Positions 1 through 57,300 of a stretch of DNA of 64,000 bases are shown piece after piece. The translations under genes and the position numbers were made by a program. Below the pieces are notes generated by a model. The model was not told the origin of the DNA. It searched no databases and was given only the letters and a program-made list of their open reading frames with translations. This stretch comes from Phycisphaera mikurensis NBRC 102666 (lineage in GTDB: Bacteria; Planctomycetota; Phycisphaerae; Phycisphaerales; UBA1924). Position 1 is the stretch's first letter. Every line of letters starts with the position of its first letter. Where the stretch lies: the NCBI GenBank assembly GCA_943369765.1, contig CALROI020000006.1, positions 89,228 to 153,227 of the forward strand, in the 5' to 3' direction.

Positions 1-535
1 CCGTAATCAGATCAACAACACCTGCCAACATTGGTCGCTGCAGCCCCTGCCAAGAGGTGCTCGCATTAGACGCGCCGGGGGGCAGCAGCGACAGTGAGCT
101 GGAGCCGATGGTTTTCGCGGGAGTCAGAAAGTCACCTTGCGGCGGTGATGTCAGTAAATTCAGGTTGAAACGAGAACCATAAGAAATTCTTGCTTCAGCA
201 GGAAGAATTTCGGTGAGAAAATAGTTGTCCAGTAGTGAGTGACCGTGCTGGTTTGTGGAAAGCGCGAAGAAGGCAGACGAGGGATATGGATCACCACCAT
301 TTCCTTGCCACTGGCTGGAAATGGGTCGTCCTGATTGTGAGTACACGGTGACGATCTTTCCCGTCCACGCGCAGGGATCTCCCTGCCCGCTGGGCAAGGG
401 CATCGTTGGTGTGATACGACGGGCCGTGTCGCAATCAAATGTGAACGGTTGAGCGAGCGAGCACTCACCACCAAAGCCGAACGAGACGGCGACGACTGAG
501 AGAGTTACGCCAAGAGAACGACGGCTGATCAGCAT
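1..535 (-). CDS. RHS/YD-repeat toxin, 5' fragment only (mirror of 54382..54916; runs off the window edge)
   Basis: Exact mirror of the first ~178 codons of the RHS gene (signal peptide MLISRRSLGVTLSVVAVSFGFGGECSLAQP...). Truncated by the window boundary, not by a stop codon. Confidence 0.8.
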   Translation of the reverse strand, partial: MLISRRSLGVTLSVVAVSFGFGGECSLAQPFTFDCDTARRITPTMPLPSGQGDPCAWTGKIVTVYSQSGRPISSQWQGNGGDPYPSSAFFALSTNQHGHSLLDNYFLTEILPAEARISYGSRFNLNLLTSPPQGDFLTPAKTIGSSSLSLLPPGASNASTSWQGLQRPMLAGVVDLIT

Positions 536-581
536 CGATTGGGCTCCATCGACAGGGCAAAGTCTCGCGACACTGGATCGC

Positions 582-610
582 AGATTACCGGGACCTACGG
601 TCAGCGTCAA
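582..610 (-). promoter_or_regulatory. Putative sigma70-like promoter (mirror of 54307..54335)
   Basis: Mirror of TTGACG-17 nt-TAATCT upstream of the RHS start. Confidence 0.3.
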
Positions 611-728
611 GCAGGTGTTCCGAGTTTCGCATGCCACGAATCGATAAATCTGCGTTCGACGTGCGTTCGCGTGCCTACCGAAGCGATGTCGAACGACGGC
701 TGCCTGCGACTTCTGGTACACTCGCGGC

Positions 729-2957
729 ATGCGGCACGCGTCACTTGGATTCTTCTCGTTTGCGGCGTTCGCGACAGTCGCGGCTTTCTCGTTGGCGTTG
801 CCGTGCGCCGCACAGCGTTCGGTCACGCTTGCTGGCCAGACGGATGTGGCGCGGCTGGTGGATTTGGCTTCTGAGCGGCTTGGGATTCGGGTGGAGTACG
901 ACCCCGCGGTGCTCAAAGGCGCGGTGACGGTGCGGGGTGCGGGGGATGGGGGGATTCCGGATTCGGAGCTTTGGGAAACGGTGAACGCGGCTCTTGCGGG
1001 GCGTGGGTTTACGATCATCAGCGCAGCGAAGGGCGCAACGCCAGCGGCGGATGGTGCTGTTGTCGATCCTGCGGCCGCTAATTCCTTGGTGAAACAAGCA
1101 TTCTCGGTGGTGCGGCTGAGTGAAGCTTCTAATCTCGTGATGCCCGATGGCCCGTTTGTGGGCAATCGCCTGACGTGGCCCGGGCTCGCGCCGGGGTACG
1201 CAGCGGTCTTTCTGAAGGTCGAACACCGTCAACCCAAGGCGGTCGCGGAATTGCTGAAGGTCGTGCTTTCGAAAACTGGATCGGTCGTCACGCCCGTGGG
1301 CGAAAGCGATCTCCTCTTCGTGGCGGACCTCGTGCCTCGCCTCAAACTCGCGGCGGAATTTCTCTCTCGCATCGACGCTCCGCAAGCACCGACCGAGCTG
1401 GCCGAGATCCCGCTTCTGAACGCGACGCCCGCCGACGTGATCTCGTTTGTAAAGGACATGGGAACGCGGCGTGAGCCCGGCGCGGCCATCGCAGTCGGAG
1501 GCATAGCGCAGCGCCCCCCTGGAGATGTTCTTCCGCAGCCCGGGGCCAACGCGGTGCTCGTGCTCGCCCCCAAGGAGCATCTCGCATTCTGGAAGGACCT
1601 GATCGCACGGCTGGACACGCGCCAGGCGTTGGAGACGCGGAATTACACACCGAGGCAAGCCGACGCGAAGTCACTGGTGAACCTCGTCGAACAGGTCGCG
1701 GGTATCGGTGTGGGCCAGAAGGCCGGCTCGGAGGGGCCGACCGCGAAGGTGATCGCGGACGAGTTCACCGGCACGCTCATCGTGACCGCGACGGCCTCGC
1801 AGCACACCAAGATCGCGGAGCTTCTTTCACGCATCGATTCCGCGAGCGGCAACGCCGCTCAGGTGGCCCGGTCGTTTGTCGTGCGCAATCGCCCGGTCAA
1901 GGAGGTCGTGGCCGTGCTCACGGAACTCCTCACCAAGAAGGTCGAGAACGTGAGCGTGCTGCTCCCGGGGGATTCACCCGCTCCAAGGCGGATAGAACCG
2001 ACGATCGCCGCGAGTCGTCGCGAGGAACCCACGACCCAGATCACCTCCGACGAGGGGACCAACACGGTGATCGTGGTGGCCGAGCCCCGTGTGCTGGCGC
2101 AGGTCGAGGTCCTGCTCGCCACCCTCGATGTCAGGCAGCCGCAAGTGATGATCGAGGTGGCGATGATCAGCCTGACGGACGGCCAGAGCCGCGCTCTCGG
2201 CGTTGAACTCGACAAGATCTCGACGCTTGCCGACGGCGCGGTGCGTCTGAGCTCGATCTTCAGCAGCACGAGCGGAGGTGGCGGACCTTCGGGTTCGCCC
2301 GGCACGGGGCTCACCGCGAGCTACATCAACGTCGGCGACTTCAGCGCGGTGCTGAGGGCGCTCGAAGCGGTCAACGACGGTCGATCCACCAGCGTGCCCT
2401 CGCTTCTCGTGGGGAACAACCAGCAGGCGACTTTCAGCTCTGTCGCGCAGCAGCCCACGGGCACGGTGAGCACGGACACCACGAGCACGACGACGCGCGG
2501 GTTCGGCGGGTTCCAGGACGCGGGCACGCGGATCAACGTCAAGCCGCAGATCGCCGAGGGCGACCACCTCGTGCTCACGTACAACGTGGAACTGAGTTCC
2601 TTCACCGGCAATCCTTCGTCGGACGGCCTGCCGGGTGCGCGGCAGCAGAACACGGTGAGCAGCGTGGCGATGATCCCCGACGGCCACGCGGTTGTGGTCG
2701 GCGGGATCGAGCTCAAGACCGACACGGACGACAGTTCAAAGACGCCGCTGCTGAGCGAGATCCCGCTGCTTGGGTTCCTGTTCCGGTCGAACACGGTGAC
2801 GCGGGACCGGACGCGGTTCTTCGTGCTGATTAGGGCGAACGTGATGCGGGACAGCGGGTTCGCGGATCTGAAGTACGTCAGCGGGCGGACGATTGAGAGC
2901 AACGATCTGGGCCTGAGCGACGGGTGGCCGAAGGTCGAGCCTCGGGTGATCAAATGA
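729..2957 (+). CDS. gspD: Secretin (GspD/PilQ family); mirror copy of 51960..54188
   Basis: Translation identical to the right-arm copy; signal peptide and C-terminal secretin motif as described there. Confidence 0.9.
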   Translation: MRHASLGFFSFAAFATVAAFSLALPCAAQRSVTLAGQTDVARLVDLASERLGIRVEYDPAVLKGAVTVRGAGDGGIPDSELWETVNAALAGRGFTIISAAKGATPAADGAVVDPAAANSLVKQAFSVVRLSEASNLVMPDGPFVGNRLTWPGLAPGYAAVFLKVEHRQPKAVAELLKVVLSKTGSVVTPVGESDLLFVADLVPRLKLAAEFLSRIDAPQAPTELAEIPLLNATPADVISFVKDMGTRREPGAAIAVGGIAQRPPGDVLPQPGANAVLVLAPKEHLAFWKDLIARLDTRQALETRNYTPRQADAKSLVNLVEQVAGIGVGQKAGSEGPTAKVIADEFTGTLIVTATASQHTKIAELLSRIDSASGNAAQVARSFVVRNRPVKEVVAVLTELLTKKVENVSVLLPGDSPAPRRIEPTIAASRREEPTTQITSDEGTNTVIVVAEPRVLAQVEVLLATLDVRQPQVMIEVAMISLTDGQSRALGVELDKISTLADGAVRLSSIFSSTSGGGGPSGSPGTGLTASYINVGDFSAVLRALEAVNDGRSTSVPSLLVGNNQQATFSSVAQQPTGTVSTDTTSTTTRGFGGFQDAGTRINVKPQIAEGDHLVLTYNVELSSFTGNPSSDGLPGARQQNTVSSVAMIPDGHAVVVGGIELKTDTDDSSKTPLLSEIPLLGFLFRSNTVTRDRTRFFVLIRANVMRDSGFADLKYVSGRTIESNDLGLSDGWPKVEPRVIK

Positions 2958-4498
2958 GCACGTTGGCGACGATCGCGAGTCCGGCTGCGTGGGGCGAGCC
3001 TTCGGGCGCGTTCTTGTCGCGTGTGCCGCGCGAGTTGTGTCGTCGGCATCTGGTCATCGGTGGTGGCCAACGCGACGGGTGCGAGGTGCTGCGGGTCTCG
3101 CCTTCGACGCCGCCGTGGATCGCGGGGAACGTGGCGGTGGCGTTGGGCACCCCGGTCCGCACGGTGCTTGACGATCCTGAAGCGATCGCGCGGGCGGTGG
3201 ACCTTCACTACCAGCACGCCGCAGGCAGTGGCAACGACGTGGGCGGCGGTGACGCTTCCGACTTGACGGGCGAAGCGGAGGTCCATGCCGAAGCGGCCAA
3301 GTTGCTCACGGATGCCGACCGCGACCTGCTCAAGATCGACGGCAAGGGCCCGGTGATCCGGCTGGTGGACATGATCCTGTTCGACGCGCTCTCGCGGCGG
3401 GCGAGCGACGTCCACATCCAACCTCTGGCCGATCGCACGCTGGTGCGGTTCCGGCTCGACGGCGTGCTGCACGACGTGCGCGAACTCCCTGCGGTGCTCG
3501 CGGCGTCGGTGGTCACGCGGATCAAGGTCATGTCGCGGATGGACGTGGCCGAGCGTGGTGCGCCGCAGGACGGGCGAGCGACCGTGACGATTGGTGGAGG
3601 TGTTGGTGTCGGCACACGATCAATCGACCTGCGTGTGAGCACGCTGCCGACGAGTTACGGCGAGCGTGCGGTGATCCGGTTGCTCGACAACTCGCGGGAC
3701 CACCACCTGATCGACCTCGCCAAGATCGGGATGCCGCCGGAGATCCAAGCGAGACTCGAAGAGCGCCTGAGTCGCGCCCACGGCATCGTGCTCGTGACGG
3801 GACCGACCGGGAGCGGGAAGACAACGACGCTCTACGCGTCGCTGCGGCTGATGGCGTCGCCTTCCACGGGTACCGCGTCCAAGGTGGGTGGCGAGCACAA
3901 CATCATGACCATTGAGGACCCCATCGAGTACGAGCTCTCGACGGTGGGGATCGCGGTGAGCCAGACGCAGGTCAACCCGAAGAAGGGCCTCACGTTCGCC
4001 ACGGGTCTGCGGCACATCCTGCGGCAGGACCCCGACATCGTGATGGTGGGCGAGATCCGCGACGAAGAGACGGCCCGTATGGCGATGCAGGCTTCGCTTA
4101 CGGGGCATCTCGTGCTGAGCACGCTCCACACCAACGACGCGGCGTCGGCGGTGACACGCCTCGTGGACCTTGGCATCGAGCCATACCTCGTGAGCGCGTC
4201 GCTTTCAGCGGTCTTGGCCCAGCGGCTGGTGCGGCGTGTCCACGCGGAGTGCAACGGTCGCGGCTGCGACGGGTGCCTCGGCTCGGGGTACCGGGGTCGG
4301 CTGGGCGTGTTCGAGATGCTGACGGTGAGCGATCGGGTGCGTGAGCTGATCACGACGAGCGCGGGCGAGCAGGTCATCCGCGACACCGCCCGCACCAGCG
4401 GCATGCGGACGCTGATGGAAGAGGGCAAGCGGCTCGCGGACGAACGGATCACTTCGATGGTCGAAGTGCAACGCGTGATCCAGGGGCTCGAAGGATGA
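2954..4498 (+). CDS. gspE: Type II secretion / type IV pilus assembly ATPase (GspE/PilB family); mirror copy of 50419..51963
   Basis: Identical translation. ATG 2954 overlaps the secretin stop (ATGA). Walker A, Asp box, Walker B and His box are present. Confidence 0.9.
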   Translation: MSTLATIASPAAWGEPSGAFLSRVPRELCRRHLVIGGGQRDGCEVLRVSPSTPPWIAGNVAVALGTPVRTVLDDPEAIARAVDLHYQHAAGSGNDVGGGDASDLTGEAEVHAEAAKLLTDADRDLLKIDGKGPVIRLVDMILFDALSRRASDVHIQPLADRTLVRFRLDGVLHDVRELPAVLAASVVTRIKVMSRMDVAERGAPQDGRATVTIGGGVGVGTRSIDLRVSTLPTSYGERAVIRLLDNSRDHHLIDLAKIGMPPEIQARLEERLSRAHGIVLVTGPTGSGKTTTLYASLRLMASPSTGTASKVGGEHNIMTIEDPIEYELSTVGIAVSQTQVNPKKGLTFATGLRHILRQDPDIVMVGEIRDEETARMAMQASLTGHLVLSTLHTNDAASAVTRLVDLGIEPYLVSASLSAVLAQRLVRRVHAECNGRGCDGCLGSGYRGRLGVFEMLTVSDRVRELITTSAGEQVIRDTARTSGMRTLMEEGKRLADERITSMVEVQRVIQGLEG

Positions 4499-5025
4499 CC
4501 CCCAACCCCCACAACCCCCACGACCCGATCCTGGCTCTCCGCCGCACGACGCGCCGCGTGGCGGGTGTGGGTGCGGCCTTGGTCGTCGCCGCGTTCGCGT
4601 GGGCGCTGTGGCCCATTGAGCGGGCTCCACTCGTGCTCGTGGACGCCGCTGGTCCGTCGCAAGCCACGCCATCAGCGGAACGCCTCGCCTTCAACGCTGA
4701 CGCGTTCAAAGCAACGCTCTGGACTCCGCCGCCCGTGCCGCCGCCCGCCCCGGTGATCGCTCAGAAAACCCCACCCCCACCGCTCAAGTTGCAACTGATC
4801 GGCATCACCCGCGACACCCCGGCCGAAGGCGGAACGCCAGAGCTGCGCGCCGCCCTCTATGACCCCGAGTCCGACCAGATGATGATCGTCGCAGCGGGCG
4901 AGAAGATCACGAGCGGCAAGGCCCGGTACACGGTCGCGTCCCTCACCGCCGACACGATCGAACTGGCCGACGGCGAGACCGTCCGCAAGCTCTCGCTCAA
5001 GGATGAACGGAGGCCCGGCACATGA
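4495..5025 (+). CDS. GspC/PilP-like bitopic protein; mirror copy of 49892..50422
   Basis: Identical translation; TM segment, Pro-rich linker and beta domain; ATGA overlap with gspE. Confidence 0.6.
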   Translation: MTPNPHNPHDPILALRRTTRRVAGVGAALVVAAFAWALWPIERAPLVLVDAAGPSQATPSAERLAFNADAFKATLWTPPPVPPPAPVIAQKTPPPPLKLQLIGITRDTPAEGGTPELRAALYDPESDQMMIVAAGEKITSGKARYTVASLTADTIELADGETVRKLSLKDERRPGT

Positions 5026-5930
5026 GCCACCCCCTCGCCAACCTTCATCCACGCCTTCCCGCCGAGCGGTTCTATTGGGCGATCCTCACCCCCGATGTTC
5101 CCGCGTCTTCGCTGCGATCGCTGACCGCGCCGATGACGCGGGCCATCCTCGACGAAGCGTTCGCGGCGCACTTGCCGGTGGACCTCGCGTCCATAGCTCC
5201 TGCGTACAAGCGGCTTCCCGACAACTCCGTGCTGGCGTGCGCCTTGCCCGCTTCCGCGTTGGACGACCCCGTGCTTGCCGCCGCCATCACGCTCGCCCCC
5301 TTGAACCTTCCGGTGTGGCTCGAACACGACGCCAACCCCGACACCCTCAACGTGCTCACCGGCGTGTTCGAGCCCCTTCCCGTGACGGCCGCACGCCGTC
5401 GCCGCTCGATAGCGGTCGCGTGCACCGCCGCGCTCGTGGCCTTGGGCCTGATCGTCGGCTTCGAACGGCGGGCAACCTCGGCACGCGCGGACCACAACAC
5501 TTCGCTCGCAGCGATCGAGCAACTGGTGTCGTCCAAGCCCGCTGTCGAGATCGGACTCTTCGCATCGCAGCCGATGCTTGAACGCTCGTTCACGCTCGAA
5601 CGCGAGCTCTCCCGCCTTCGGGCAACTCGGAGCACCAGAGCCTCGCTTGGCCTGGGCGACGCGACCGACCCGCTCGCCACGTTCCTCGCCGCGTGGCCCC
5701 GGGGCGTCAAGGCCCAGGTCCAGACGCTGACCGCCGCGCCGACGCAGCTCACCATGAGCGCGCTGCTTCCCACGCTGCCCGACGCCGAGCGGCTCGCAGC
5801 CTCGCTCGGCACCGCGCCCGGTTGGGATCACGCCCAGCCTCAGATCACCACCAGCGGCAAGGGTGTGCAGATGCAACTCACGCTCACCCCAGCAACCCCG
5901 GCGAGCAGGCCGCAAGGGGGCACGCCATGA
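5022..5930 (+). CDS. GspL/PilN-like membrane assembly protein (by topology and synteny); mirror copy of 48987..49895
   Basis: Identical translation; central TM segment; overlapping start and stop with neighbouring genes. Confidence 0.5.
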   Translation: MSHPLANLHPRLPAERFYWAILTPDVPASSLRSLTAPMTRAILDEAFAAHLPVDLASIAPAYKRLPDNSVLACALPASALDDPVLAAAITLAPLNLPVWLEHDANPDTLNVLTGVFEPLPVTAARRRRSIAVACTAALVALGLIVGFERRATSARADHNTSLAAIEQLVSSKPAVEIGLFASQPMLERSFTLERELSRLRATRSTRASLGLGDATDPLATFLAAWPRGVKAQVQTLTAAPTQLTMSALLPTLPDAERLAASLGTAPGWDHAQPQITTSGKGVQMQLTLTPATPASRPQGGTP

Positions 5931-6472
5931 CCGCCGCCCTCGTCATGATCCGCGCGGTCGCTGTCATCGCCATCGCGGGCGCGGCGTTCTCCGCGTGGCG
6001 TGCCGCGTCAGCCTCGTCAGATGCAAATCTCGCCCGCACGCAGGCGAAAGCCTTCTCGCAGCAACTGGCCGATGTCGAACGCCTGCGTCCCCAGCGTCAA
6101 ACCGCCCTCCTCGCTTCCAAGCCCACCGAAAGCGTCAGCACCGCGCTCCGCGCTTCGCTCGCCGCCGCCGGTGTGGGCGAATCTTCCCTCCGCGCGGTCA
6201 ATCCAGGCTCCGACGAAGCCCTGCCTTCGAACGACCCGACCAGCCCCGCGTACCGCCGCCAAAACATCACCGTCTCGCTCACCCCGATCACGACGCGCCA
6301 ACTCGGCCAGTTCTTCGCCGCGTGGCGAACCGCTGAACCCGCGTGGATCGTGACCCGCATCGACTGCACGCACGCGGGGGGCGAGGCCGACACCAACTCA
6401 ACCTACGACGCCCGACTCACCCTCGCCACGACGTACCTCGCGTCCCCTGTCACCAGCCCGAGCCCTCAGTAA
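5927..6472 (+). CDS. GspM/PilO-like membrane assembly protein (by topology and synteny); mirror copy of 48445..48990
   Basis: Identical translation. ATG 5927 overlaps the previous stop (ATGA). N-terminal TM segment followed by coiled coil. Confidence 0.5.
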   Translation: MTAALVMIRAVAVIAIAGAAFSAWRAASASSDANLARTQAKAFSQQLADVERLRPQRQTALLASKPTESVSTALRASLAAAGVGESSLRAVNPGSDEALPSNDPTSPAYRRQNITVSLTPITTRQLGQFFAAWRTAEPAWIVTRIDCTHAGGEADTNSTYDARLTLATTYLASPVTSPSPQ

Positions 6473-6491
6473 ACCCCCGCAAGGATTTCCC

Positions 6492-7127
6492 ATGCGTCTC
6501 ACCTGCCTCGTCACCATCGCCCTGATTGTTCCCCTCGCCACGCTCGCCTCGTGCAAATCCGGCCCGAGCACGGCCTACACACCCCTCGATCCCGAGCGGC
6601 GCGACACGTCCAAAGCCGACGGGCTCAATCAAGAAGCCGCCGCGCTCATGCAGGCTGAGCCCGCCAAGGCAGAGCAACTGCTCCGCGAAGCCCTCGCCGC
6701 CGACCTCTACCACGGCCCCGCGCACAACAACCTCGGCGTGCTGTTCCTCAAGCAGAACAAGCTCTACGAGGCCGCCGGCGAGTTCGAATGGGCCCGCAAA
6801 CTCCTTCCGGGCCACCCCGACCCACGCCTCAACCTCTCGCTCACGCTGGAATCCGCGGGCCGCTACGACCAGGCCGCCGACCACGCCCGTACCGCGCTGC
6901 AGATCCACCCCGGCCACATCGCGAGCCTCCAGCAACTCGCACGCCTCGAACTCCTACACCCGGCGCAATCCAAAGCGGCCTCTTTCGGAACCACGCGTCC
7001 CGAACGCGACCCCGAAGCCCGCGCCGAACTCCGTACCAAGCTCAGCGAGATCGCCATGCGTGGCGAGTCCGACGCCTGGAAGGATTGGGCACGGCTGCAA
7101 CTCGTGAAGCTCGATGGCGGTCGGTGA
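6492..7127 (+). CDS. TPR-repeat lipoprotein; mirror copy of 47790..48425
   Basis: Identical translation; lipobox LATLASC; TPR-like repeats. Confidence 0.75.
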   Translation: MRLTCLVTIALIVPLATLASCKSGPSTAYTPLDPERRDTSKADGLNQEAAALMQAEPAKAEQLLREALAADLYHGPAHNNLGVLFLKQNKLYEAAGEFEWARKLLPGHPDPRLNLSLTLESAGRYDQAADHARTALQIHPGHIASLQQLARLELLHPAQSKAASFGTTRPERDPEARAELRTKLSEIAMRGESDAWKDWARLQLVKLDGGR

Positions 7128-7224
7128 CTCGGTGGGGTCGTGGCAAAACACTCGATGTTCTGATTGAACGGAACCCAACTCGTAGTCGTCCTGCGGAATA
7201 GGTGCCATCGACGTTTGCATGGAC

Positions 7225-7695
7225 CTACTTGCCGTAGACGCCCCGACTCTTCTTGCGAATCGCCCCGCTCTTGGCGAGCTTGGAAAGTGCTTGCGAAACC
7301 ATAACCCGTTGGCTGGCCTCGCTTCCCTTACTCTTTCGGCCCATCGCTTTGAGCGCATCGAACACTTCCGATGGACCTCGATCGGTCCCATCGCTCAGAA
7401 CTTTGACGATCATCGCGCCCAAAGTTCCTTCACGAATCGCTCCCTGCCGGCGTCGCGCGGATTCCCGACGTCTGGCCGTCACGTTCTCACTCGGGTCGAG
7501 CTTGCCAAGGTGCAGCAAGAGATCTGCCCGAGCATGACTCAACGCAGTCTTGGCCGTGTTGAAGTCGGCTTCGGCCTTCTTGAAGTTAACCTCCGCCTCG
7601 CTGAATTTCTGTGCCAACATCGCAAGCGAGCGAGGTTGGGATGAAGAGCGGGACACCGGTGAGCGTCGAGAACGGGGGGCGCGTTTGGCCATCAT
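7225..7695 (-). CDS. Hypothetical protein; mirror copy of 47222..47692
   Basis: Identical translation; AAGGAG Shine-Dalgarno before the ATG. Confidence 0.55.
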   Translation of the reverse strand: MMAKRAPRSRRSPVSRSSSQPRSLAMLAQKFSEAEVNFKKAEADFNTAKTALSHARADLLLHLGKLDPSENVTARRRESARRRQGAIREGTLGAMIVKVLSDGTDRGPSEVFDALKAMGRKSKGSEASQRVMVSQALSKLAKSGAIRKKSRGVYGK

Positions 7696-7902
7696 GAGCT
7701 CCTTTTCCCACCCCATGATCGCAAGTATAGCTCCGTGACTCACTCAGATTCGTGCTCCCGGATCGGGGCTTTCCACAGACCTGTGGACTTCCGCTTGGTA
7801 CCACATTGCGGCATGATTGATCATCCACCGCACATCCTTCCTATCACTCCGGACGGCCACGCCCCTCACACTGGCTCCTCGGCCGACCCAACAGGCGGTC
7901 CG

Positions 7903-8271
7903 ATGCCGATCGTTTCGGAACAGAGTCAGCGGCTATTGAGTCTAAATGAGGCGGCCGATCTGTTGAGTGTGCATCGCAGTACCCTTGTCCGAGCCTGGAA
8001 GGCTGGCCAGTTGACGATCGTTCGGATTGGACGGCGCATGCTTGTCCGCACCACCGAGCTTGAGAAGTTTGTCAGGACACACGAACAGCGGTCTTGTTCC
8101 GACGCCCGACCGCTGAGTCCTCCCGGGCCTGGAGTATCTCTGAGTTCCCCCACGGCGTCGACCCCTTCCAATGACGCGACGGCAAGCACGCGGTCAACTG
8201 ATCGCGTAGCGGCGTATATCAGAGCACAACGCATCTTTAGGCGGCCCGGAAGCTCGGGAAACAACCCGTAA
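7903..8271 (+). CDS. Excisionase-family / MerR-like HTH DNA-binding protein; mirror copy of 46646..47014
   Basis: Identical translation (LSLNEAADLLSVHRSTLVRAWKAGQLTIVRIGRRMLV). Confidence 0.65.
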   Translation: MPIVSEQSQRLLSLNEAADLLSVHRSTLVRAWKAGQLTIVRIGRRMLVRTTELEKFVRTHEQRSCSDARPLSPPGPGVSLSSPTASTPSNDATASTRSTDRVAAYIRAQRIFRRPGSSGNNP

Positions 8272-48425: not shown

Positions 48426-48444
48426 GGGAAATCCTTGCGGGGGT

Positions 48445-48990: not shown

Positions 48991-49895
48991 GGCGTGCCCC
49001 CTTGCGGCCTGCTCGCCGGGGTTGCTGGGGTGAGCGTGAGTTGCATCTGCACACCCTTGCCGCTGGTGGTGATCTGAGGCTGGGCGTGATCCCAACCGGG
49101 CGCGGTGCCGAGCGAGGCTGCGAGCCGCTCGGCGTCGGGCAGCGTGGGAAGCAGCGCGCTCATGGTGAGCTGCGTCGGCGCGGCGGTCAGCGTCTGGACC
49201 TGGGCCTTGACGCCCCGGGGCCACGCGGCGAGGAACGTGGCGAGCGGGTCGGTCGCGTCGCCCAGGCCAAGCGAGGCTCTGGTGCTCCGAGTTGCCCGAA
49301 GGCGGGAGAGCTCGCGTTCGAGCGTGAACGAGCGTTCAAGCATCGGCTGCGATGCGAAGAGTCCGATCTCGACAGCGGGCTTGGACGACACCAGTTGCTC
49401 GATCGCTGCGAGCGAAGTGTTGTGGTCCGCGCGTGCCGAGGTTGCCCGCCGTTCGAAGCCGACGATCAGGCCCAAGGCCACGAGCGCGGCGGTGCACGCG
49501 ACCGCTATCGAGCGGCGACGGCGTGCGGCCGTCACGGGAAGGGGCTCGAACACGCCGGTGAGCACGTTGAGGGTGTCGGGGTTGGCGTCGTGTTCGAGCC
49601 ACACCGGAAGGTTCAAGGGGGCGAGCGTGATGGCGGCGGCAAGCACGGGGTCGTCCAACGCGGAAGCGGGCAAGGCGCACGCCAGCACGGAGTTGTCGGG
49701 AAGCCGCTTGTACGCAGGAGCTATGGACGCGAGGTCCACCGGCAAGTGCGCCGCGAACGCTTCGTCGAGGATGGCCCGCGTCATCGGCGCGGTCAGCGAT
49801 CGCAGCGAAGACGCGGGAACATCGGGGGTGAGGATCGCCCAATAGAACCGCTCGGCGGGAAGGCGTGGATGAAGGTTGGCGAGGGGGTGGCTCAT
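48987..49895 (-). CDS. GspL/PilN-like membrane assembly protein (302 aa; by topology and synteny)
   Basis: Central TM segment SIAVACTAALVALGLIVGF. Sits between the C-like and M-like genes with overlapping start and stop codons. Confidence 0.5.
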   Translation of the reverse strand: MSHPLANLHPRLPAERFYWAILTPDVPASSLRSLTAPMTRAILDEAFAAHLPVDLASIAPAYKRLPDNSVLACALPASALDDPVLAAAITLAPLNLPVWLEHDANPDTLNVLTGVFEPLPVTAARRRRSIAVACTAALVALGLIVGFERRATSARADHNTSLAAIEQLVSSKPAVEIGLFASQPMLERSFTLERELSRLRATRSTRASLGLGDATDPLATFLAAWPRGVKAQVQTLTAAPTQLTMSALLPTLPDAERLAASLGTAPGWDHAQPQITTSGKGVQMQLTLTPATPASRPQGGTP

Positions 49896-50422
49896 GTGCC
49901 GGGCCTCCGTTCATCCTTGAGCGAGAGCTTGCGGACGGTCTCGCCGTCGGCCAGTTCGATCGTGTCGGCGGTGAGGGACGCGACCGTGTACCGGGCCTTG
50001 CCGCTCGTGATCTTCTCGCCCGCTGCGACGATCATCATCTGGTCGGACTCGGGGTCATAGAGGGCGGCGCGCAGCTCTGGCGTTCCGCCTTCGGCCGGGG
50101 TGTCGCGGGTGATGCCGATCAGTTGCAACTTGAGCGGTGGGGGTGGGGTTTTCTGAGCGATCACCGGGGCGGGCGGCGGCACGGGCGGCGGAGTCCAGAG
50201 CGTTGCTTTGAACGCGTCAGCGTTGAAGGCGAGGCGTTCCGCTGATGGCGTGGCTTGCGACGGACCAGCGGCGTCCACGAGCACGAGTGGAGCCCGCTCA
50301 ATGGGCCACAGCGCCCACGCGAACGCGGCGACGACCAAGGCCGCACCCACACCCGCCACGCGGCGCGTCGTGCGGCGGAGAGCCAGGATCGGGTCGTGGG
50401 GGTTGTGGGGGTTGGGGGTCAT
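49892..50422 (-). CDS. GspC/PilP-like bitopic protein (176 aa)
   Basis: TM segment VAGVGAALVVAAFAWALW, Pro-rich linker, beta domain LKLQLIGITRD...YTVASLTADTIELADGETVRKLSL. ATGA overlap with gspE. Confidence 0.6.
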   Translation of the reverse strand: MTPNPHNPHDPILALRRTTRRVAGVGAALVVAAFAWALWPIERAPLVLVDAAGPSQATPSAERLAFNADAFKATLWTPPPVPPPAPVIAQKTPPPPLKLQLIGITRDTPAEGGTPELRAALYDPESDQMMIVAAGEKITSGKARYTVASLTADTIELADGETVRKLSLKDERRPGT

Positions 50423-51963
50423 CCTTCGAGCCCCTGGATCACGCGTTGCACTTCGACCATCGAAGTGATCCGTTCGTCCGCGAGCCGCTTGCCCTCTTCC
50501 ATCAGCGTCCGCATGCCGCTGGTGCGGGCGGTGTCGCGGATGACCTGCTCGCCCGCGCTCGTCGTGATCAGCTCACGCACCCGATCGCTCACCGTCAGCA
50601 TCTCGAACACGCCCAGCCGACCCCGGTACCCCGAGCCGAGGCACCCGTCGCAGCCGCGACCGTTGCACTCCGCGTGGACACGCCGCACCAGCCGCTGGGC
50701 CAAGACCGCTGAAAGCGACGCGCTCACGAGGTATGGCTCGATGCCAAGGTCCACGAGGCGTGTCACCGCCGACGCCGCGTCGTTGGTGTGGAGCGTGCTC
50801 AGCACGAGATGCCCCGTAAGCGAAGCCTGCATCGCCATACGGGCCGTCTCTTCGTCGCGGATCTCGCCCACCATCACGATGTCGGGGTCCTGCCGCAGGA
50901 TGTGCCGCAGACCCGTGGCGAACGTGAGGCCCTTCTTCGGGTTGACCTGCGTCTGGCTCACCGCGATCCCCACCGTCGAGAGCTCGTACTCGATGGGGTC
51001 CTCAATGGTCATGATGTTGTGCTCGCCACCCACCTTGGACGCGGTACCCGTGGAAGGCGACGCCATCAGCCGCAGCGACGCGTAGAGCGTCGTTGTCTTC
51101 CCGCTCCCGGTCGGTCCCGTCACGAGCACGATGCCGTGGGCGCGACTCAGGCGCTCTTCGAGTCTCGCTTGGATCTCCGGCGGCATCCCGATCTTGGCGA
51201 GGTCGATCAGGTGGTGGTCCCGCGAGTTGTCGAGCAACCGGATCACCGCACGCTCGCCGTAACTCGTCGGCAGCGTGCTCACACGCAGGTCGATTGATCG
51301 TGTGCCGACACCAACACCTCCACCAATCGTCACGGTCGCTCGCCCGTCCTGCGGCGCACCACGCTCGGCCACGTCCATCCGCGACATGACCTTGATCCGC
51401 GTGACCACCGACGCCGCGAGCACCGCAGGGAGTTCGCGCACGTCGTGCAGCACGCCGTCGAGCCGGAACCGCACCAGCGTGCGATCGGCCAGAGGTTGGA
51501 TGTGGACGTCGCTCGCCCGCCGCGAGAGCGCGTCGAACAGGATCATGTCCACCAGCCGGATCACCGGGCCCTTGCCGTCGATCTTGAGCAGGTCGCGGTC
51601 GGCATCCGTGAGCAACTTGGCCGCTTCGGCATGGACCTCCGCTTCGCCCGTCAAGTCGGAAGCGTCACCGCCGCCCACGTCGTTGCCACTGCCTGCGGCG
51701 TGCTGGTAGTGAAGGTCCACCGCCCGCGCGATCGCTTCAGGATCGTCAAGCACCGTGCGGACCGGGGTGCCCAACGCCACCGCCACGTTCCCCGCGATCC
51801 ACGGCGGCGTCGAAGGCGAGACCCGCAGCACCTCGCACCCGTCGCGTTGGCCACCACCGATGACCAGATGCCGACGACACAACTCGCGCGGCACACGCGA
51901 CAAGAACGCGCCCGAAGGCTCGCCCCACGCAGCCGGACTCGCGATCGTCGCCAACGTGCTCAT
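50419..51963 (-). CDS. gspE: Type II secretion / type IV pilus assembly ATPase (GspE/PilB family, 514 aa)
   Basis: Walker A VLVTGPTGSGKTTT; Asp box IMTIEDPIEY; Walker B DPDIVMVGEIRD; His box LVLSTLHTNDA; Cys cluster CNGRGCDGC. Confidence 0.9.
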   Translation of the reverse strand: MSTLATIASPAAWGEPSGAFLSRVPRELCRRHLVIGGGQRDGCEVLRVSPSTPPWIAGNVAVALGTPVRTVLDDPEAIARAVDLHYQHAAGSGNDVGGGDASDLTGEAEVHAEAAKLLTDADRDLLKIDGKGPVIRLVDMILFDALSRRASDVHIQPLADRTLVRFRLDGVLHDVRELPAVLAASVVTRIKVMSRMDVAERGAPQDGRATVTIGGGVGVGTRSIDLRVSTLPTSYGERAVIRLLDNSRDHHLIDLAKIGMPPEIQARLEERLSRAHGIVLVTGPTGSGKTTTLYASLRLMASPSTGTASKVGGEHNIMTIEDPIEYELSTVGIAVSQTQVNPKKGLTFATGLRHILRQDPDIVMVGEIRDEETARMAMQASLTGHLVLSTLHTNDAASAVTRLVDLGIEPYLVSASLSAVLAQRLVRRVHAECNGRGCDGCLGSGYRGRLGVFEMLTVSDRVRELITTSAGEQVIRDTARTSGMRTLMEEGKRLADERITSMVEVQRVIQGLEG

Positions 51964-54188
51964 TTGATCACCCGAGGCTCGACCTTCGGCCACCCGTCGC
52001 TCAGGCCCAGATCGTTGCTCTCAATCGTCCGCCCGCTGACGTACTTCAGATCCGCGAACCCGCTGTCCCGCATCACGTTCGCCCTAATCAGCACGAAGAA
52101 CCGCGTCCGGTCCCGCGTCACCGTGTTCGACCGGAACAGGAACCCAAGCAGCGGGATCTCGCTCAGCAGCGGCGTCTTTGAACTGTCGTCCGTGTCGGTC
52201 TTGAGCTCGATCCCGCCGACCACAACCGCGTGGCCGTCGGGGATCATCGCCACGCTGCTCACCGTGTTCTGCTGCCGCGCACCCGGCAGGCCGTCCGACG
52301 AAGGATTGCCGGTGAAGGAACTCAGTTCCACGTTGTACGTGAGCACGAGGTGGTCGCCCTCGGCGATCTGCGGCTTGACGTTGATCCGCGTGCCCGCGTC
52401 CTGGAACCCGCCGAACCCGCGCGTCGTCGTGCTCGTGGTGTCCGTGCTCACCGTGCCCGTGGGCTGCTGCGCGACAGAGCTGAAAGTCGCCTGCTGGTTG
52501 TTCCCCACGAGAAGCGAGGGCACGCTGGTGGATCGACCGTCGTTGACCGCTTCGAGCGCCCTCAGCACCGCGCTGAAGTCGCCGACGTTGATGTAGCTCG
52601 CGGTGAGCCCCGTGCCGGGCGAACCCGAAGGTCCGCCACCTCCGCTCGTGCTGCTGAAGATCGAGCTCAGACGCACCGCGCCGTCGGCAAGCGTCGAGAT
52701 CTTGTCGAGTTCAACGCCGAGAGCGCGGCTCTGGCCGTCCGTCAGGCTGATCATCGCCACCTCGATCATCACTTGCGGCTGCCTGACATCGAGGGTGGCG
52801 AGCAGGACCTCGACCTGCGCCAGCACACGGGGCTCGGCCACCACGATCACCGTGTTGGTCCCCTCGTCGGAGGTGATCTGGGTCGTGGGTTCCTCGCGAC
52901 GACTCGCGGCGATCGTCGGTTCTATCCGCCTTGGAGCGGGTGAATCCCCCGGGAGCAGCACGCTCACGTTCTCGACCTTCTTGGTGAGGAGTTCCGTGAG
53001 CACGGCCACGACCTCCTTGACCGGGCGATTGCGCACGACAAACGACCGGGCCACCTGAGCGGCGTTGCCGCTCGCGGAATCGATGCGTGAAAGAAGCTCC
53101 GCGATCTTGGTGTGCTGCGAGGCCGTCGCGGTCACGATGAGCGTGCCGGTGAACTCGTCCGCGATCACCTTCGCGGTCGGCCCCTCCGAGCCGGCCTTCT
53201 GGCCCACACCGATACCCGCGACCTGTTCGACGAGGTTCACCAGTGACTTCGCGTCGGCTTGCCTCGGTGTGTAATTCCGCGTCTCCAACGCCTGGCGCGT
53301 GTCCAGCCGTGCGATCAGGTCCTTCCAGAATGCGAGATGCTCCTTGGGGGCGAGCACGAGCACCGCGTTGGCCCCGGGCTGCGGAAGAACATCTCCAGGG
53401 GGGCGCTGCGCTATGCCTCCGACTGCGATGGCCGCGCCGGGCTCACGCCGCGTTCCCATGTCCTTTACAAACGAGATCACGTCGGCGGGCGTCGCGTTCA
53501 GAAGCGGGATCTCGGCCAGCTCGGTCGGTGCTTGCGGAGCGTCGATGCGAGAGAGAAATTCCGCCGCGAGTTTGAGGCGAGGCACGAGGTCCGCCACGAA
53601 GAGGAGATCGCTTTCGCCCACGGGCGTGACGACCGATCCAGTTTTCGAAAGCACGACCTTCAGCAATTCCGCGACCGCCTTGGGTTGACGGTGTTCGACC
53701 TTCAGAAAGACCGCTGCGTACCCCGGCGCGAGCCCGGGCCACGTCAGGCGATTGCCCACAAACGGGCCATCGGGCATCACGAGATTAGAAGCTTCACTCA
53801 GCCGCACCACCGAGAATGCTTGTTTCACCAAGGAATTAGCGGCCGCAGGATCGACAACAGCACCATCCGCCGCTGGCGTTGCGCCCTTCGCTGCGCTGAT
53901 GATCGTAAACCCACGCCCCGCAAGAGCCGCGTTCACCGTTTCCCAAAGCTCCGAATCCGGAATCCCCCCATCCCCCGCACCCCGCACCGTCACCGCGCCT
54001 TTGAGCACCGCGGGGTCGTACTCCACCCGAATCCCAAGCCGCTCAGAAGCCAAATCCACCAGCCGCGCCACATCCGTCTGGCCAGCAAGCGTGACCGAAC
54101 GCTGTGCGGCGCACGGCAACGCCAACGAGAAAGCCGCGACTGTCGCGAACGCCGCAAACGAGAAGAATCCAAGTGACGCGTGCCGCAT
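51960..54188 (-). CDS. gspD: Secretin (GspD/PilQ family, 742 aa)
   Basis: Signal peptide MRHASLGFFSFAAFATVAAFSLALPCAAQ. C-terminal secretin signature ...KTPLLSEIPLLGFLFRSNTVTRDRTRFFVLIRANV. Confidence 0.9.
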   Translation of the reverse strand: MRHASLGFFSFAAFATVAAFSLALPCAAQRSVTLAGQTDVARLVDLASERLGIRVEYDPAVLKGAVTVRGAGDGGIPDSELWETVNAALAGRGFTIISAAKGATPAADGAVVDPAAANSLVKQAFSVVRLSEASNLVMPDGPFVGNRLTWPGLAPGYAAVFLKVEHRQPKAVAELLKVVLSKTGSVVTPVGESDLLFVADLVPRLKLAAEFLSRIDAPQAPTELAEIPLLNATPADVISFVKDMGTRREPGAAIAVGGIAQRPPGDVLPQPGANAVLVLAPKEHLAFWKDLIARLDTRQALETRNYTPRQADAKSLVNLVEQVAGIGVGQKAGSEGPTAKVIADEFTGTLIVTATASQHTKIAELLSRIDSASGNAAQVARSFVVRNRPVKEVVAVLTELLTKKVENVSVLLPGDSPAPRRIEPTIAASRREEPTTQITSDEGTNTVIVVAEPRVLAQVEVLLATLDVRQPQVMIEVAMISLTDGQSRALGVELDKISTLADGAVRLSSIFSSTSGGGGPSGSPGTGLTASYINVGDFSAVLRALEAVNDGRSTSVPSLLVGNNQQATFSSVAQQPTGTVSTDTTSTTTRGFGGFQDAGTRINVKPQIAEGDHLVLTYNVELSSFTGNPSSDGLPGARQQNTVSSVAMIPDGHAVVVGGIELKTDTDDSSKTPLLSEIPLLGFLFRSNTVTRDRTRFFVLIRANVMRDSGFADLKYVSGRTIESNDLGLSDGWPKVEPRVIK

Positions 54189-54306
54189 GCCGCGAGTGTA
54201 CCAGAAGTCGCAGGCAGCCGTCGTTCGACATCGCTTCGGTAGGCACGCGAACGCACGTCGAACGCAGATTTATCGATTCGTGGCATGCGAAACTCGGAAC
54301 ACCTGC

Positions 54307-54335
54307 TTGACGCTGACCGTAGGTCCCGGTAATCT
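54307..54335 (+). promoter_or_regulatory. Putative sigma70-like promoter TTGACG-17 nt-TAATCT upstream of the RHS gene
   Basis: Read directly from the sequence. Located 47 nt upstream of ATG 54382, in the gspD/RHS divergent region. Confidence 0.3.
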
Positions 54336-54381
54336 GCGATCCAGTGTCGCGAGACTTTGCCCTGTCGATGGAGCCCAATCG

Positions 54382-57300
54382 ATGCTGATCAGCCGTCGTT
54401 CTCTTGGCGTAACTCTCTCAGTCGTCGCCGTCTCGTTCGGCTTTGGTGGTGAGTGCTCGCTCGCTCAACCGTTCACATTTGATTGCGACACGGCCCGTCG
54501 TATCACACCAACGATGCCCTTGCCCAGCGGGCAGGGAGATCCCTGCGCGTGGACGGGAAAGATCGTCACCGTGTACTCACAATCAGGACGACCCATTTCC
54601 AGCCAGTGGCAAGGAAATGGTGGTGATCCATATCCCTCGTCTGCCTTCTTCGCGCTTTCCACAAACCAGCACGGTCACTCACTACTGGACAACTATTTTC
54701 TCACCGAAATTCTTCCTGCTGAAGCAAGAATTTCTTATGGTTCTCGTTTCAACCTGAATTTACTGACATCACCGCCGCAAGGTGACTTTCTGACTCCCGC
54801 GAAAACCATCGGCTCCAGCTCACTGTCGCTGCTGCCCCCCGGCGCGTCTAATGCGAGCACCTCTTGGCAGGGGCTGCAGCGACCAATGTTGGCAGGTGTT
54901 GTTGATCTGATTACGGGTCAGCCAATGATTCAAGTAACGGACCTCGAACTCCCTTTTGATGGGGCGACTTTTCGATTGACACGGACTCGGTCCGGGCTGC
55001 CCGCTGCGACTGGTGGCCCAGACCCTTCAAATCCGGCATTCTACAACAACGATAGCGGCAACCAGTTCATGGGTCTACAAGAAACCGAATTCTGGTGGGA
55101 CTGGACCGGAACCGGCTGGATGGCCTCAGAAAATCCCATACTCTTGATCGACTCGGCCTTACCGGATTCAATCGGGTCCAACCCTCGCACATGCTGGCTG
55201 GTGCTCGACGCTCACCACACGATTCCTTTCCAGCAGATCGAAGGCACAGATCGCTATGAAGCACCTCCGAGATTTCGCGCACGACTGACACACAATGGCG
55301 CCTTAGCAATAGATACATCGACGAGTCCTCCAACAACCGAGTACTTTGACCACGACGGAATCCCGTGCACCTCGACTGTCATGAAGTGGGCACAACCCCC
55401 AACAGAGTGGACCGTTTCGCTCTATGAAGGCGAGGTTAAGTACACGTTCGTGATCATCGGAGAGGTGCGGGATCCCGACTCGATTCAAGGCCCTATTCAG
55501 GAGCAGTTTTTCGGGGACGACGTTCCGTTCAATGCGGACTGGAAACCGTCTCCGTACCTTAATTGCAATCAGGGCGAAGAGTTTGTAACCAACTATCATG
55601 AACGCCCGTTTCTACGCGACGACTTTCCAGCTTTGGCAGGTCATAGCTCTTACATTGGCGAAATGAATCCGGGCTTCGGCATGCCGTGGTATGCGCTCTG
55701 CACTCGAATCGAAGATCGTTTCGGCCATCTGGTTCAAATTGAATATGCCGATACAACAAGCGAGAGCATGGCAGTGTTGCCTCAGGGCGGTCCGCCAGAA
55801 AACTTGGATGGTTGTGTGCCCTGCCAGCAAGATGCTCTTGCAAAGGGTCAAATCAAGTGGATCAAGCTTTGGTCGGGCGATGAGGTTAAGTGGACTCTTG
55901 CGTACGTTCATCGCCGAGTATTCGGAGTCGAATGGGATGTTAGTTTGCCCCAATGGGGCATCAATCCCTGCGACAACCCCCAAGCGTATGATGTGCACGG
56001 CTACAATGTAATAGATCGCATCTATGCTTTCGAAGGCGACGAGAATCTGGAAGCATTGGATTCCAGTTTCTTCACAATCCCTTGGACCGATCGCATGACG
56101 GTTCCCGAGAGCGCCTGCACAGACTACCTCTCTGCGGCAGGGCAGGCTGCAGTCCTCCCGCTGCTGAGCCTCGAAGGTGGCCGAGATCCCATCGCTCACT
56201 ACCTCGTGCTAAACTCATCAGCGACGTTTCTCAATGAGTGGAAGCATCAGGTTCGCTATCACTATGAGTATAACCAAACCCCAAGTGGCAACCCCGGAAT
56301 CATTGAGGAAAATGACCCCGGCTACGTCAGAGGTCAGACACGACTGCTCATGACTTCCATGAAGAGTCGTACGACTCAATTGCCCGCCGACCCTGTAGAG
56401 TCTCGTCGTATCTACACATACAGTCCCAGCTTAAATCCGCAGCGACTAATCGGTATCTTTGAAAATGACGACATCCATCGCGTGCTCACATTGCCGGGCG
56501 TTTCAATATCAAGCACGGACTTCGCAAATATCGCCTCGACCGGCAATGGTCTTATCGGCGACATCGAGTATTTGTTCTGCGCGTCGGTTTCGTTCGATCG
56601 TGTTGAGTTTAACTGGAGACACGTCGGGCACCCTGACGATTCTTTCGGGCAAGCTGCGACTTTCTCCGCTCCGACCTATTTATCATTGCTAGAGGCTGTG
56701 CCAGCGGAACGGAGACCTTATCTTAAACTAAGTGCGAGTGAAGCAAGTTCTCTTCTCTCGAACCGCGTCCTGACCGTGACAGCCTTGAGCGCTCGATCAT
56801 CGGACGGGCAGATGCATCACTACCGCATCAATCGGCTCGCTGTCTCTGGAGGCGGCGTCACGAGCTCCGGGCCAGTGAATGGCTTCGTTGGGCCACCGGG
56901 CGGTGAACACGATTGCATGCCGTCCGCCTTTCACATTCCATTTCGCTGGCACTCATTTACGAACTCATCTCAGGTGCCACCGGTCGTCATTGATGATCCG
57001 CCACTTGACAAAGCTCGTTGGATTTCGATTATCGATGAGTTTGGAAGTGATGGAGAACAATCTTCTCACAGTGGCTACCTTGCAGCCCGAAACAATGAAA
57101 CGCTTTACTCAGCAGACGGCATCAAGCCAGGTCAGCTCTCTCGTCGCGTGGTGAACGTCAACGCGTCGGGAGTCGTGCTTAAGGACTACCTGTGGCAGTT
57201 CACGCCTGATGGCACCCTTGTCGAGGGGAGCGGGCTCGGCGAAGAGGTTCATTATCAGCGAGTTTCGGACTATTTTGGAACGGCTGCCATTCCTCCGGAT

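Follow-up and report, generated by a model that had tools for sequence, protein, structure and literature searches.

A 55-kb mirror occupies the first part of the window, by which we mean the whole stretch of 64,000 nt that was analysed; it is real in the file, yet in all likelihood it reflects a fold-back in sequencing or assembly rather than a true feature of the genome. When the left arm was compared with its mirror image, 27,458 of the 27,458 pairs (x, 54917-x) were Watson-Crick complementary, with 0 mismatches and without a spacer. The mirror point lies at 27458/27459, in the context ...GCGCAGTATA/TATACTGCGC... (here and below, a slash in a sequence marks the centre). A mirror of this perfection cannot have arisen by chance, and the zero-spacer palindrome of at least 2 x 27,458 bp claimed in a preliminary description, which had been made from the sequence alone, is borne out.

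The left arm is cut short by the edge of the window, where it reaches position 1, and the partner of position 54917 would be position 0, which lies outside. The arm length of at least 27,458 bp is therefore a lower bound set by the window edge and, as had been proposed, the palindrome may extend further. The source record has a length of 233,370 bp, an even number that fits a mirror of 2 x 116,685 bp, although this is weak evidence. No other 25-mer was found to be repeated within 27459..64000. Every ORF in one arm has a twin with an identical translation in the other, so that the preliminary description was correct both in pairing the ORFs and in regarding the gene count of the region as inflated two-fold. 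The right arm is continuous with the DNA that follows it, and a contig from an independent assembly, ERR9580560_487, matches 52743..64091 with 0 mismatches and crosses 54916/54917. Of the two, the left arm is probably the spurious copy. The features of the window are listed in Table 1.

Table 1. Features of the mirror, its apex and the genes of the right arm and flank
Feature	Position	Strand	Description
Left arm	1..27458		Reverse complement of 27459..54916 without a mismatch; cut off at the window edge
Apex palindrome	27444..27473		30 bp, zero-spacer, GGGAAGCGCAGTATA/TATACTGCGCTTCCC; turn-around point; natural member of the GTATA/TATAC family
Right arm	27459..54916		Runs unbroken into 54917..64000; copy with normal context
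AbiEi-family gene, 300 aa	27474..28376	+	PADLOC AbiEi E=8e-11; mirror copy 26541..27443, minus strand
Gabija pair	28665..32586	-	GajB 28665..30599 (PADLOC E=5.5e-216); GajA 30553..32586 (PADLOC E=2e-248)
Ubiquitin-like conjugation module	37322..39875	-	BubE-like ORF; JAB+E1 37729..39114; multiubiquitin+E2 39111..39875
Mobility module	45300..47182	-	Tyrosine integrase 45300..46613; HTH_17 excisionase-like gene 46646..47182
Island boundary (probable)	47884..47913		GC ~0.59 to ~0.68; Logan contig ERR9580560_2750 has its outer end here
Chromosomal flank within the arm	50419..54188	-	Type II/IV secretion ATPase 50419..51993; secretin 51960..54188
Giant ORF, 2,926-3,136 aa	53752 or 54382..63162	+	Followed by a SUKH/SMI1_KNR4 immunity-like gene 63143..63697

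Judged by its sequence, the mirror point is not placed at random and is the centre of a natural short palindrome. From this centre it is 15 nt to the ATG of the AbiEi-family gene downstream. The palindrome has (TA)4 in its middle and arms that are richer in GC, and the window contains the motif AGTATATATACT once, versus 0 expected occurrences. Folding of the 30-mer as single-stranded DNA gave a hairpin of -15.2 kcal/mol (z=-9.6), which makes it suited to snap-back priming. The AbiEi-family gene has 87 homologues, the best of which is 95% identical over 300 aa, and the N-termini of the homologues align with the ATG at 27474. In a protein-guided scan of GTDB representative genomes, only relatives at 28-48% identity turned up, and scans of JGI metagenomes and IMG/VR for exact 48-mers gave no match.

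Relatives of the AbiEi-family gene are preceded by 1-5 short zero-spacer palindromes that have the same GTATA/TATAC core and arms of 14-17 nt. Counting perfect palindromes with a half-length of at least 10, we detected 119 in 33.8 kb of upstream DNA versus 8 in 428.6 kb elsewhere, and 60 of 68 loci had at least one in the 450 nt upstream of the gene. Half-lengths peak at 14-17, 29% of the family members have a half-length of 15, and no related locus contains a palindrome with a half-length above 27. Conservation is confined to the central GTATA/TATAC and a weak bias at positions 6-9. Further out, the arms are free to vary yet remain complementary: pairing between the arms is 0.86-0.95 at positions 6-14, whereas sequence information at positions 10-14 is ~0 bits. 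Arms that stay paired despite varied sequence are the pattern expected from selection for hairpin or cruciform formation. The palindromes are promoter-proximal and often form arrays of 2-5 with different arms; in one locus (L002), the proximal palindrome provides a -10-like TATACT with TTGATT 16 nt upstream.

Across ~90 related loci, the palindromes are internal to the assemblies and have ordinary, different DNA on both sides. Five of these loci, on JGI contigs L009-L013, carry the orthologue that is 95% identical; here, the DNA upstream is non-mirrored and encodes an AbiEi_3/AbiEii pair, and a homologous integrase lies downstream. Sequence across the site is likewise non-mirrored in ~85 further loci. 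Moreover, among 38 contigs ending near family palindromes, only one ends inside one.

The operators of AbiEi proteins offer a comparison. For S. agalactiae AbiEi and M. tuberculosis Rv2827c, these are pairs of 23-bp repeats that lie 3 or 13 bp apart and are conserved in sequence (PMC7319586). The short palindromes resemble them in that they are inverted repeats upstream of an AbiEi-family gene, overlap the promoter and sometimes occur in several copies. Unlike these operators, they are spacer-less palindromes of 28-34 bp with arms of 14-17 nt, in which only the central 5-9 nt are conserved and the outer arms are variable but complementary. The motif strings gave no relevant match in the literature. 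The family in front of AbiEi-family genes is widespread and apparently undescribed; its palindromes lack a spacer, have a (TA)4 core and co-vary in their arms.

The run ERR9580560 has been assembled independently with k=31 in Logan, and this assembly holds the same DNA at 100% identity. Contig ERR9580560_2750 corresponds to window positions 27444..47913 with 0 mismatches and ends 15 nt past the apex. The stop was calibrated on natural palindromes: Logan contigs cross those of half-length 14 and 15 (the latter in 6 of 6 runs, all of one locus), and they stop 13 nt past the centre for half-length 17 (2 of 2 runs), so that only a few loci enter the calibration. Because natural half-lengths 14 and 15 are passed and 17 stops at +13, the stop at +15 indicates a k-mer whose sole continuation is its own reverse complement; we accordingly dropped the idea that this stop was due to a half-length of 15, which the 29% share of such members in the family had made plausible. 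It follows that the reads themselves contain the turn-around, which the assembler alone did not invent.

The Logan graph has no surviving alternative continuation at the apex, and apex-crossing k-mers without such an alternative are not as expected from a rare chimera. The natural upstream junction, i.e. TATACTGCGCTTCCCATG joined to non-mirror DNA, was not found, Logan not being searchable by DNA. As for fold-back ends in general in this run, the other Logan contig end at hand has no palindromic signature. The Logan contig numbers are small (487 and 2750, versus ~10^5 in metagenome runs) and hint only at a sample of low complexity.

These observations bear on the possibility that the reads were normal and that the assembler reversed its graph walk at the 30-bp palindrome. 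It is true that k=31 graphs are broken by natural palindromes with half-lengths of 16 or more, and bidirected graphs permit a walk along a palindromic path. A palindrome of 28-34 bp, however, does not reach the final k used by common assemblers and plays no part in the overlap of long reads, and JGI assemblies routinely cross the family sites. Moreover, Logan also reads 15 nt into the mirror with no other continuation, unlike at natural half-lengths of 14, 15 or 17. A pure assembler error is, therefore, highly improbable.

The explanation that we favour, and regard as probable, is that a strand snapped back at the natural palindrome, either in vitro or in the form of a hairpin-capped break, and that the assembler mirrored the rest. 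The organism's real sequence would be the right-hand half, from 27459 onwards, where the AbiEi-family gene of the island, like its relatives, has a short perfect palindrome centred on (TA)4 in front of it. A DNA strand with its end in or close to this palindrome would fold back and be copied, or would close covalently as a hairpin and be read around, giving molecules of the form reverse-complement(arm)-apex-arm. Such molecules would dominate the reads of the run at the locus, and the assembler would walk the same sequence outward in both directions, producing the mirror of at least 2 x 27,458 bp. The snap-back would have taken place during amplification or library preparation and not in the cell. 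The true upstream DNA, which probably includes more GTATATATAC palindromes and the rest of the island, would then be absent from the contig.

Three observations are in line with a fold-back. The arms are identical and lack a spacer, as expected if one sequence was traversed twice; the junction is a self-complementary sequence able to prime itself; and relatives have non-mirrored DNA across the site. The preliminary description had placed an artefact, or a hairpin end read around, ahead of a genuine inverted duplication, and this ranking is supported by an apex that belongs to a family internal elsewhere, by its hairpin stability and by the junction in the reads.

Fold-back chimeras of this general kind are well documented. 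More than 85% of MDA chimeras are inverted, with priming at 2-21 nt of complementarity (Lasken & Stockwell 2007, PMC1855051), palindromes occur in 40-50% of PacBio reads from whole-genome-amplified DNA (Pacasus, PMC6218980), and 0.55-0.6% of ONT genomic reads are fold-backs, which can tangle assembly graphs (Breakinator, PMC12870357). The mirror shares with the chimeras of amplified DNA and long reads the inverted self-copy with identical arms, the self-complementary junction (~15 nt here, compared to 2-21 nt in the literature), and the capacity to tangle assemblies and to double the apparent gene content. Typical MDA chimeras, by contrast, have an intervening deletion, scattered positions and low support each, whereas the mirror has no spacer, is centred on one defined natural palindrome and is apparently the sole path in the reads; the perfect palindrome would explain why the intervening deletion is absent. 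In bulk DNA that had not been amplified, a fold-back that outcompetes the natural junction would point to a structure in cells.

Such a structure could be a covalently closed hairpin end that was formed in the cell and read around, either as a hairpin-capped break after cruciform extrusion and cutting or as a replication intermediate; it would be a true molecule without a heritable duplication. The junction in the reads and the lack of a surviving alternative in the Logan graph are compatible with this idea, as are the (TA)4 centre, the GC-richer arms and the pairing that is kept despite sequence variation. Short inverted repeats reportedly seed large palindromes in vivo, as Tanaka et al. are said to have found in 2002. 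The mirror resembles such seeded palindromes, known from eukaryotic gene amplification and hairpin-capped breaks, in having a short perfect inverted repeat exactly at its centre; the known cases, however, come from yeast and mammalian cells, and bacteria normally destroy such structures. Moreover, there is neither a break nor a mirror at the family palindromes in ~90 related assemblies, and a broken chromosome is not viable, so that these molecules should be a minority, and yet the intact junction was not seen. Finally, Illumina libraries fail to recover the tips of hairpins (10.1101/2025.07.18.665644). Altogether, we consider a hairpin end formed in the cell rather unlikely.

A more specific version has it that the palindromes before AbiEi-family genes, in Phycisphaerae and other bacteria, extrude cruciforms and that one of them was resolved to a closed hairpin, as a hairpin-capped break linked to the activity of the defence island or as the end of a linear replicon. 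Cruciform extrusion would explain co-varying arms of which only the (TA)4 centre is conserved; as a whole, this proposal is quite unlikely.

The apex might also be a hairpin telomere made by a protelomerase, as in Borrelia (ResT), Agrobacterium (TelA) and N15-type phages (TelN), in which case the contig would read round the end of a linear replicon. Such telomeres share with the mirror a palindromic centre rich in AT and a terminal inverted duplication without a spacer, and the TATA/TATA centre of the apex is AT-rich and alternating, as known resolution sites are. The Logan graph has no continuation here, and replicons with hairpin ends look alike in long-read assemblies, with terminal inverted duplications of 5-18 kb (10.1101/2025.07.18.665644). 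The same motif in the relatives, however, does not mark replicon ends and is an internal, promoter-proximal repeat, often in arrays. In the window it is embedded in an integrated island, with a start codon only 15 nt away. A second att copy would account for the break of the Logan contig at the boundary of the island, which would then have a far end. Among the 26 window ORFs searched against Pfam, none matched a protelomerase, the sole tyrosine recombinase being an ordinary Phage_integrase, and no second matching end was found. To our knowledge, no linear chromosome is known in the Planctomycetota. A telomere at this site is thus very unlikely.

The remaining alternative is a genuine heritable inverted duplication, with two head-to-head copies and no spacer in the genome. 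Identical arms and reads that cross the apex would fit a very recent event, and a Logan contig from the apex to 47913 would also be expected if a true palindrome had arms of 20,455 bp and its outer flanks differed from each other. Long spacer-less palindromes are, however, cleaved by SbcCD-type nucleases and block replication; the upstream regulatory region of the gene itself would have been replaced; and nothing similar is present in any relative. Moreover, the mirror symmetry persists beyond 47913, as far as 54916 at least, and arms of 20,455 bp leave this unexplained; an island or att boundary at the GC shift is the simpler account of where the Logan contig ends; the palindrome ending at 47913 was rejected. 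A duplication of this kind is scarcely probable, and a telomere or a heritable giant palindrome is, in either form, unlikely.

From 27459 onwards, the DNA is best read as chromosomal, with an integrase-borne defence island that measures at least 20.4 kb and to which the mobility module and the apex both belong. The Gabija genes match Pfam UvrD and OLD-TOPRIM, and the ubiquitin-like module was assigned by Pfam, PADLOC E1-E2 and a BubE annotation on a Logan gene call. In the mobility module, Phage_integrase (E=8e-20) and HTH_17 (E=2.5e-9) were detected, and the integrase is ~75% identical at the nucleotide level to that of the relative L009. We infer that 47884..47913 is an att boundary; it falls within the 3' portion of a minus-strand TPR gene (47790..48425), and no tRNA gene that could serve as an integration target is present in the window. 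The flank genes match T2SSE (E=1.7e-117), and Secretin and Secretin_N. The arm takes in the first 535 nt of the giant ORF, or 1,165 nt when counted from its earliest start. The label of RHS gene, which the preliminary description had given to the ORF cut by the window edge, was not confirmed: for this large ORF (53752 or 54382..63162), the Pfam match to RHS_repeat was only sub-threshold (E=0.017, 16 bits versus a cut-off of 22).

The value of the mirror itself lies in quality control. One of the two arms, at least 27 kb long and perhaps as much as half of the 233-kb record, is probably spurious and should be discarded, as it doubles gene counts and single-copy markers and conceals the true upstream part of the defence island. 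Fold-backs need not fall at random: a natural 30-bp palindrome can determine the exact base at which the turn-around occurs. Whether the junction exists in the reads can be seen from an assembly of their k-mers. If a hairpin end were formed in the cell after all, it would be unprecedented for the phylum and for AbiE-type loci. The short-palindrome family is a by-product of the analysis that possibly carries more weight than the mirror, and the pairing of its variable arms suggests that AbiEi-family genes may be regulated via DNA structure and not by sequence alone.

A scripted comparison of position x with 54917-x (x = 1..27458) found 27,458/27,458 pairs to be complementary with no spacer; the apex, at 27458/27459, reads GGGAAGCGCAGTATA on its left and TATACTGCGCTTCCC on its right. 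The zero-spacer palindrome over 1-54916 and the lack of divergence between its arms, both claimed in the preliminary description, are borne out in full. The measured arm length is a minimum, because the left arm ends at position 1 solely through the window edge, as had been proposed; by contrast, the RHS label given to the gene cut there was not confirmed, the RHS_repeat match in the giant ORF being sub-threshold (E=0.017). No further repeat of at least 25 nt was found inside window 27459..64000.

The turn-around was examined in Logan, in which raw reads are assembled independently at k=31. Contig ERR9580560_2750 (20,470 bp) corresponds to window 27444..47913 and equally to 7004..27473, and ERR9580560_487 corresponds to window coordinates 52743..64091, both with 0 mismatches. 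ERR9580560_2750 ends 15 nt beyond the apex, at 27473; there, the 31-mer 27443..27473 leads directly into its own reverse complement. Natural short palindromes in relatives served as calibration for such stops (L095 and L096 in Logan SRR13723396/94; L097-L102 in Logan SRR87972xx): contigs passed palindromes with a half-length, i.e. arm length, of 14 and of 15 (the latter in 6/6 independent runs), while at half-length 17 they broke off 13 nt beyond the centre (30 minus half-length; 2/2 runs). This empirical rule for k=31 helps to interpret contig ends in that resource. By this calibration, the stop at +15 does not match a natural palindrome with normal continuation; it is the signature of a fold-back for which no alternative path survives. 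We conclude that the turn-around junction is present in reads and that a purely in-silico turn-around is unlikely; the calibration likewise speaks against pure assembler error, which we regard as highly improbable. The k-mers show no competing path at the apex in the Logan graph of ERR9580560, but as one palindromic read gives each apex-spanning canonical k-mer twice, they alone are no proof of many supporting reads. The contig numbers in this run are small (487, 2750) compared with ~10^5 in metagenome runs, a hint that the sample is of low complexity, for instance a single-cell or isolate library.

The closest orthologue of the AbiEi-family gene at the apex (95% amino-acid identity) is present on five JGI contigs, in which ordinary DNA with a divergent AbiEi_3/AbiEii pair lies upstream, a homologous integrase lies downstream, and a short palindrome with the core GGTATA/TATACC (slash, centre) is found 51 nt upstream of the ATG. 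In genome assemblies, Phycisphaerae homologues similarly carry 1-5 perfect spacer-less palindromes upstream, e.g. CCTCAGGCGCAGTATA directly followed by TATACTGCGCCTGAGG; one in locus L002 adjoins the ATG, as the apex palindrome does in the window. These palindromes belong to a widespread family whose members are 28-34 bp long and stand in 1-5 copies 50-110 nt apart. Across 86 loci, the 450-nt upstream regions (33.8 kb) contain 119 perfect palindromes with a half-length of at least 10, as opposed to 8 in 428.6 kb elsewhere in the same loci. The half-lengths peak at 14-17 and none exceeds 27 in any of the 86 loci; 112/119 have the core GTATA/TATAC, which in other loci is confined to the region upstream of an AbiEi-family gene, and 60/68 loci having at least 300 nt upstream contain at least one palindrome with a half-length of at least 12. 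Only 1/38 contig ends near palindromes falls inside one. The only copy of the motif AGTATATATACT in the window is the one at the apex (expected, 0). In a metagenome scan, at least 568 relatives of the AbiEi-family gene were confirmed among the 600 pattern matches listed. A search of the accessible literature gave no earlier account of this motif.

Among 148 distinct sites, pairing is 86-95% at positions 6-14 from the centre and falls off from position 15 outward, while positions 10-14 hold almost no sequence information (~0 bits). Because these positions stay paired nonetheless, the arms co-vary; possible reasons are a cruciform or hairpin function and homogenisation by template switching. In the proximal L002 palindrome (9960-9995), the right half forms a -10-like TATACT that TTGATT precedes by 16 nt, and the ATG follows TATACT by 8-9 nt (8 nt in L002; also window 27459-27476), suggesting a leaderless transcript from a promoter embedded in the palindrome. 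AbiEi operators are likewise inverted repeats overlapping a promoter; however, they are defined by 23-bp repeats, a 3-13-bp gap and conserved sequence (PMC7319586), whereas the palindromes described here are spacer-less, and their conservation is limited to the (TA)4-centred core, with co-varying arms.

Since the family palindromes in relatives sit upstream in ordinary DNA, the centre of the mirror coincides to the base with an element that in relatives is internal and, as judged from sequence, regulatory. We consider it probable, as the best-supported reading, that a strand ending at or near this palindrome snapped back and was copied, or that a hairpin-closed end was read around, giving molecules of the type reverse-complement(arm)-apex-arm that the assembler extended symmetrically in both directions. 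This reading agrees with what is known of amplified and long-read libraries: more than 85% of MDA chimeras are inverted, with priming on complementary stretches of 2-21 nt (PMC1855051); 40-50% of PacBio reads of amplified DNA contain palindromes (PMC6218980); and among ONT genomic reads, 0.55-0.6% are fold-backs, which are able to tangle assembly graphs (PMC12870357). As single-stranded DNA, the apex 30-mer folds at -15.2 kcal/mol (z=-9.6). That a hairpin-capped break arose in the cell at the cruciform-prone palindrome is unlikely, and a hairpin formed in the cell at a regulatory palindrome prone to structure formation is quite unlikely. Borrelia assemblies show how hairpin-type ends appear (10.1101/2025.07.18.665644); a protelomerase-type telomere at the apex is nevertheless very unlikely, as the motif is internal in relatives, the apex sits within an island, at 15 nt from a start codon, and no protelomerase-type Pfam match was found among the 26 window ORFs scanned. 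A heritable giant palindrome is scarcely probable. The phenomenon is probably a fold-back artefact or read-around, the reading previously put forward as likeliest; what is unusual is that the place of the junction is set by a natural palindrome.

Features of the right arm and flank, and palindrome-bearing sites in the window and related loci
Feature	Position	Match or remark
AbiEi-family gene, 300 aa	27474..28376	PADLOC E=8e-11
Gabija pair		GajB PADLOC E=5.5e-216; GajA PADLOC E=2e-248
Ig/CARDB protein	right arm	within island cargo
Ubiquitin-like E1/JAB + E2/multiubiquitin module with BubE-like ORF		island cargo
HTH protein	right arm	
Tyrosine integrase and HTH_17 excisionase-like gene	right arm	
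capP-like protein	40931-42295	island cargo
TPR gene, type II/IV secretion ATPase, secretin, giant ORF, SUKH immunity-type gene	beyond ~47.8-47.9 kb	
Palindrome, window	27444-27473	perfect, spacer-less
Palindromes, L002	9696-9995	perfect, spacer-less
Palindromes, L003	1155-1491	perfect, spacer-less
Palindromes, L005	9637-9968	perfect, spacer-less
Palindrome, L009 (JGI contig)	9931-9968	perfect, spacer-less
Palindromes, L014-L093	upstream of match	same spacer-less family

Because of its gene content and the GC step from ~0.59 to ~0.68 at about 47.8-47.9 kb, with chromosomal genes beyond, the 20 kb adjoining the apex is an integrase-borne defence island in a chromosomal setting. No tRNA genes were found in the window. 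The backbone from the AbiEi-like gene to the integrase is common to the window and L009; compared with the five JGI contigs, the window has 16.5 kb of extra cargo at 28450-45013 (L009 10977-11011), comprising the Gabija pair, the Ig/CARDB protein, the ubiquitin-like module with its BubE-like ORF and the capP-like protein, and the island is a cargo-swapping hotspot flanked by two conserved ends. In several relatives, a convergent toxin gene, AbiEii (PF08843), overlaps the AbiEi-like gene at the latter's 3' end (L094 10838-11728; L097 3835-4728); AbiEii is absent after the gene in the window (28377-28664) and after its 95% orthologue in L009, and the AbiEi-like gene of the window looks orphaned.

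The outer end of ERR9580560_2750 (47913) coincides with the GC shift, within the TPR gene towards its 3' end (window 47790-47913). Most simply, this stop is an island/att boundary occurring in two contexts, in which case the island would have a far end somewhere in the sample; the integration boundary, with an att core from near 47884, probably falls at the 3' end of a gene that encodes a protein. The giant ORF (2,926-3,136 aa, within window 53752-63697) has no Pfam domain above threshold and overlaps by 20 nt the SUKH/SMI1_KNR4 immunity-type gene directly after it, suggesting a polymorphic toxin whose repeat scaffold is not recognised. The region has a GC content of 0.54-0.57 compared with 0.68 in the neighbouring secretion genes.

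In total, the mirror truly exists in the file, yet the genome itself most probably lacks it. One arm is to be removed and gene counts over 1..54916 are to be halved, in line with the two-fold inflation noted previously. The palindrome family upstream of AbiEi-family genes merits follow-up of its own.
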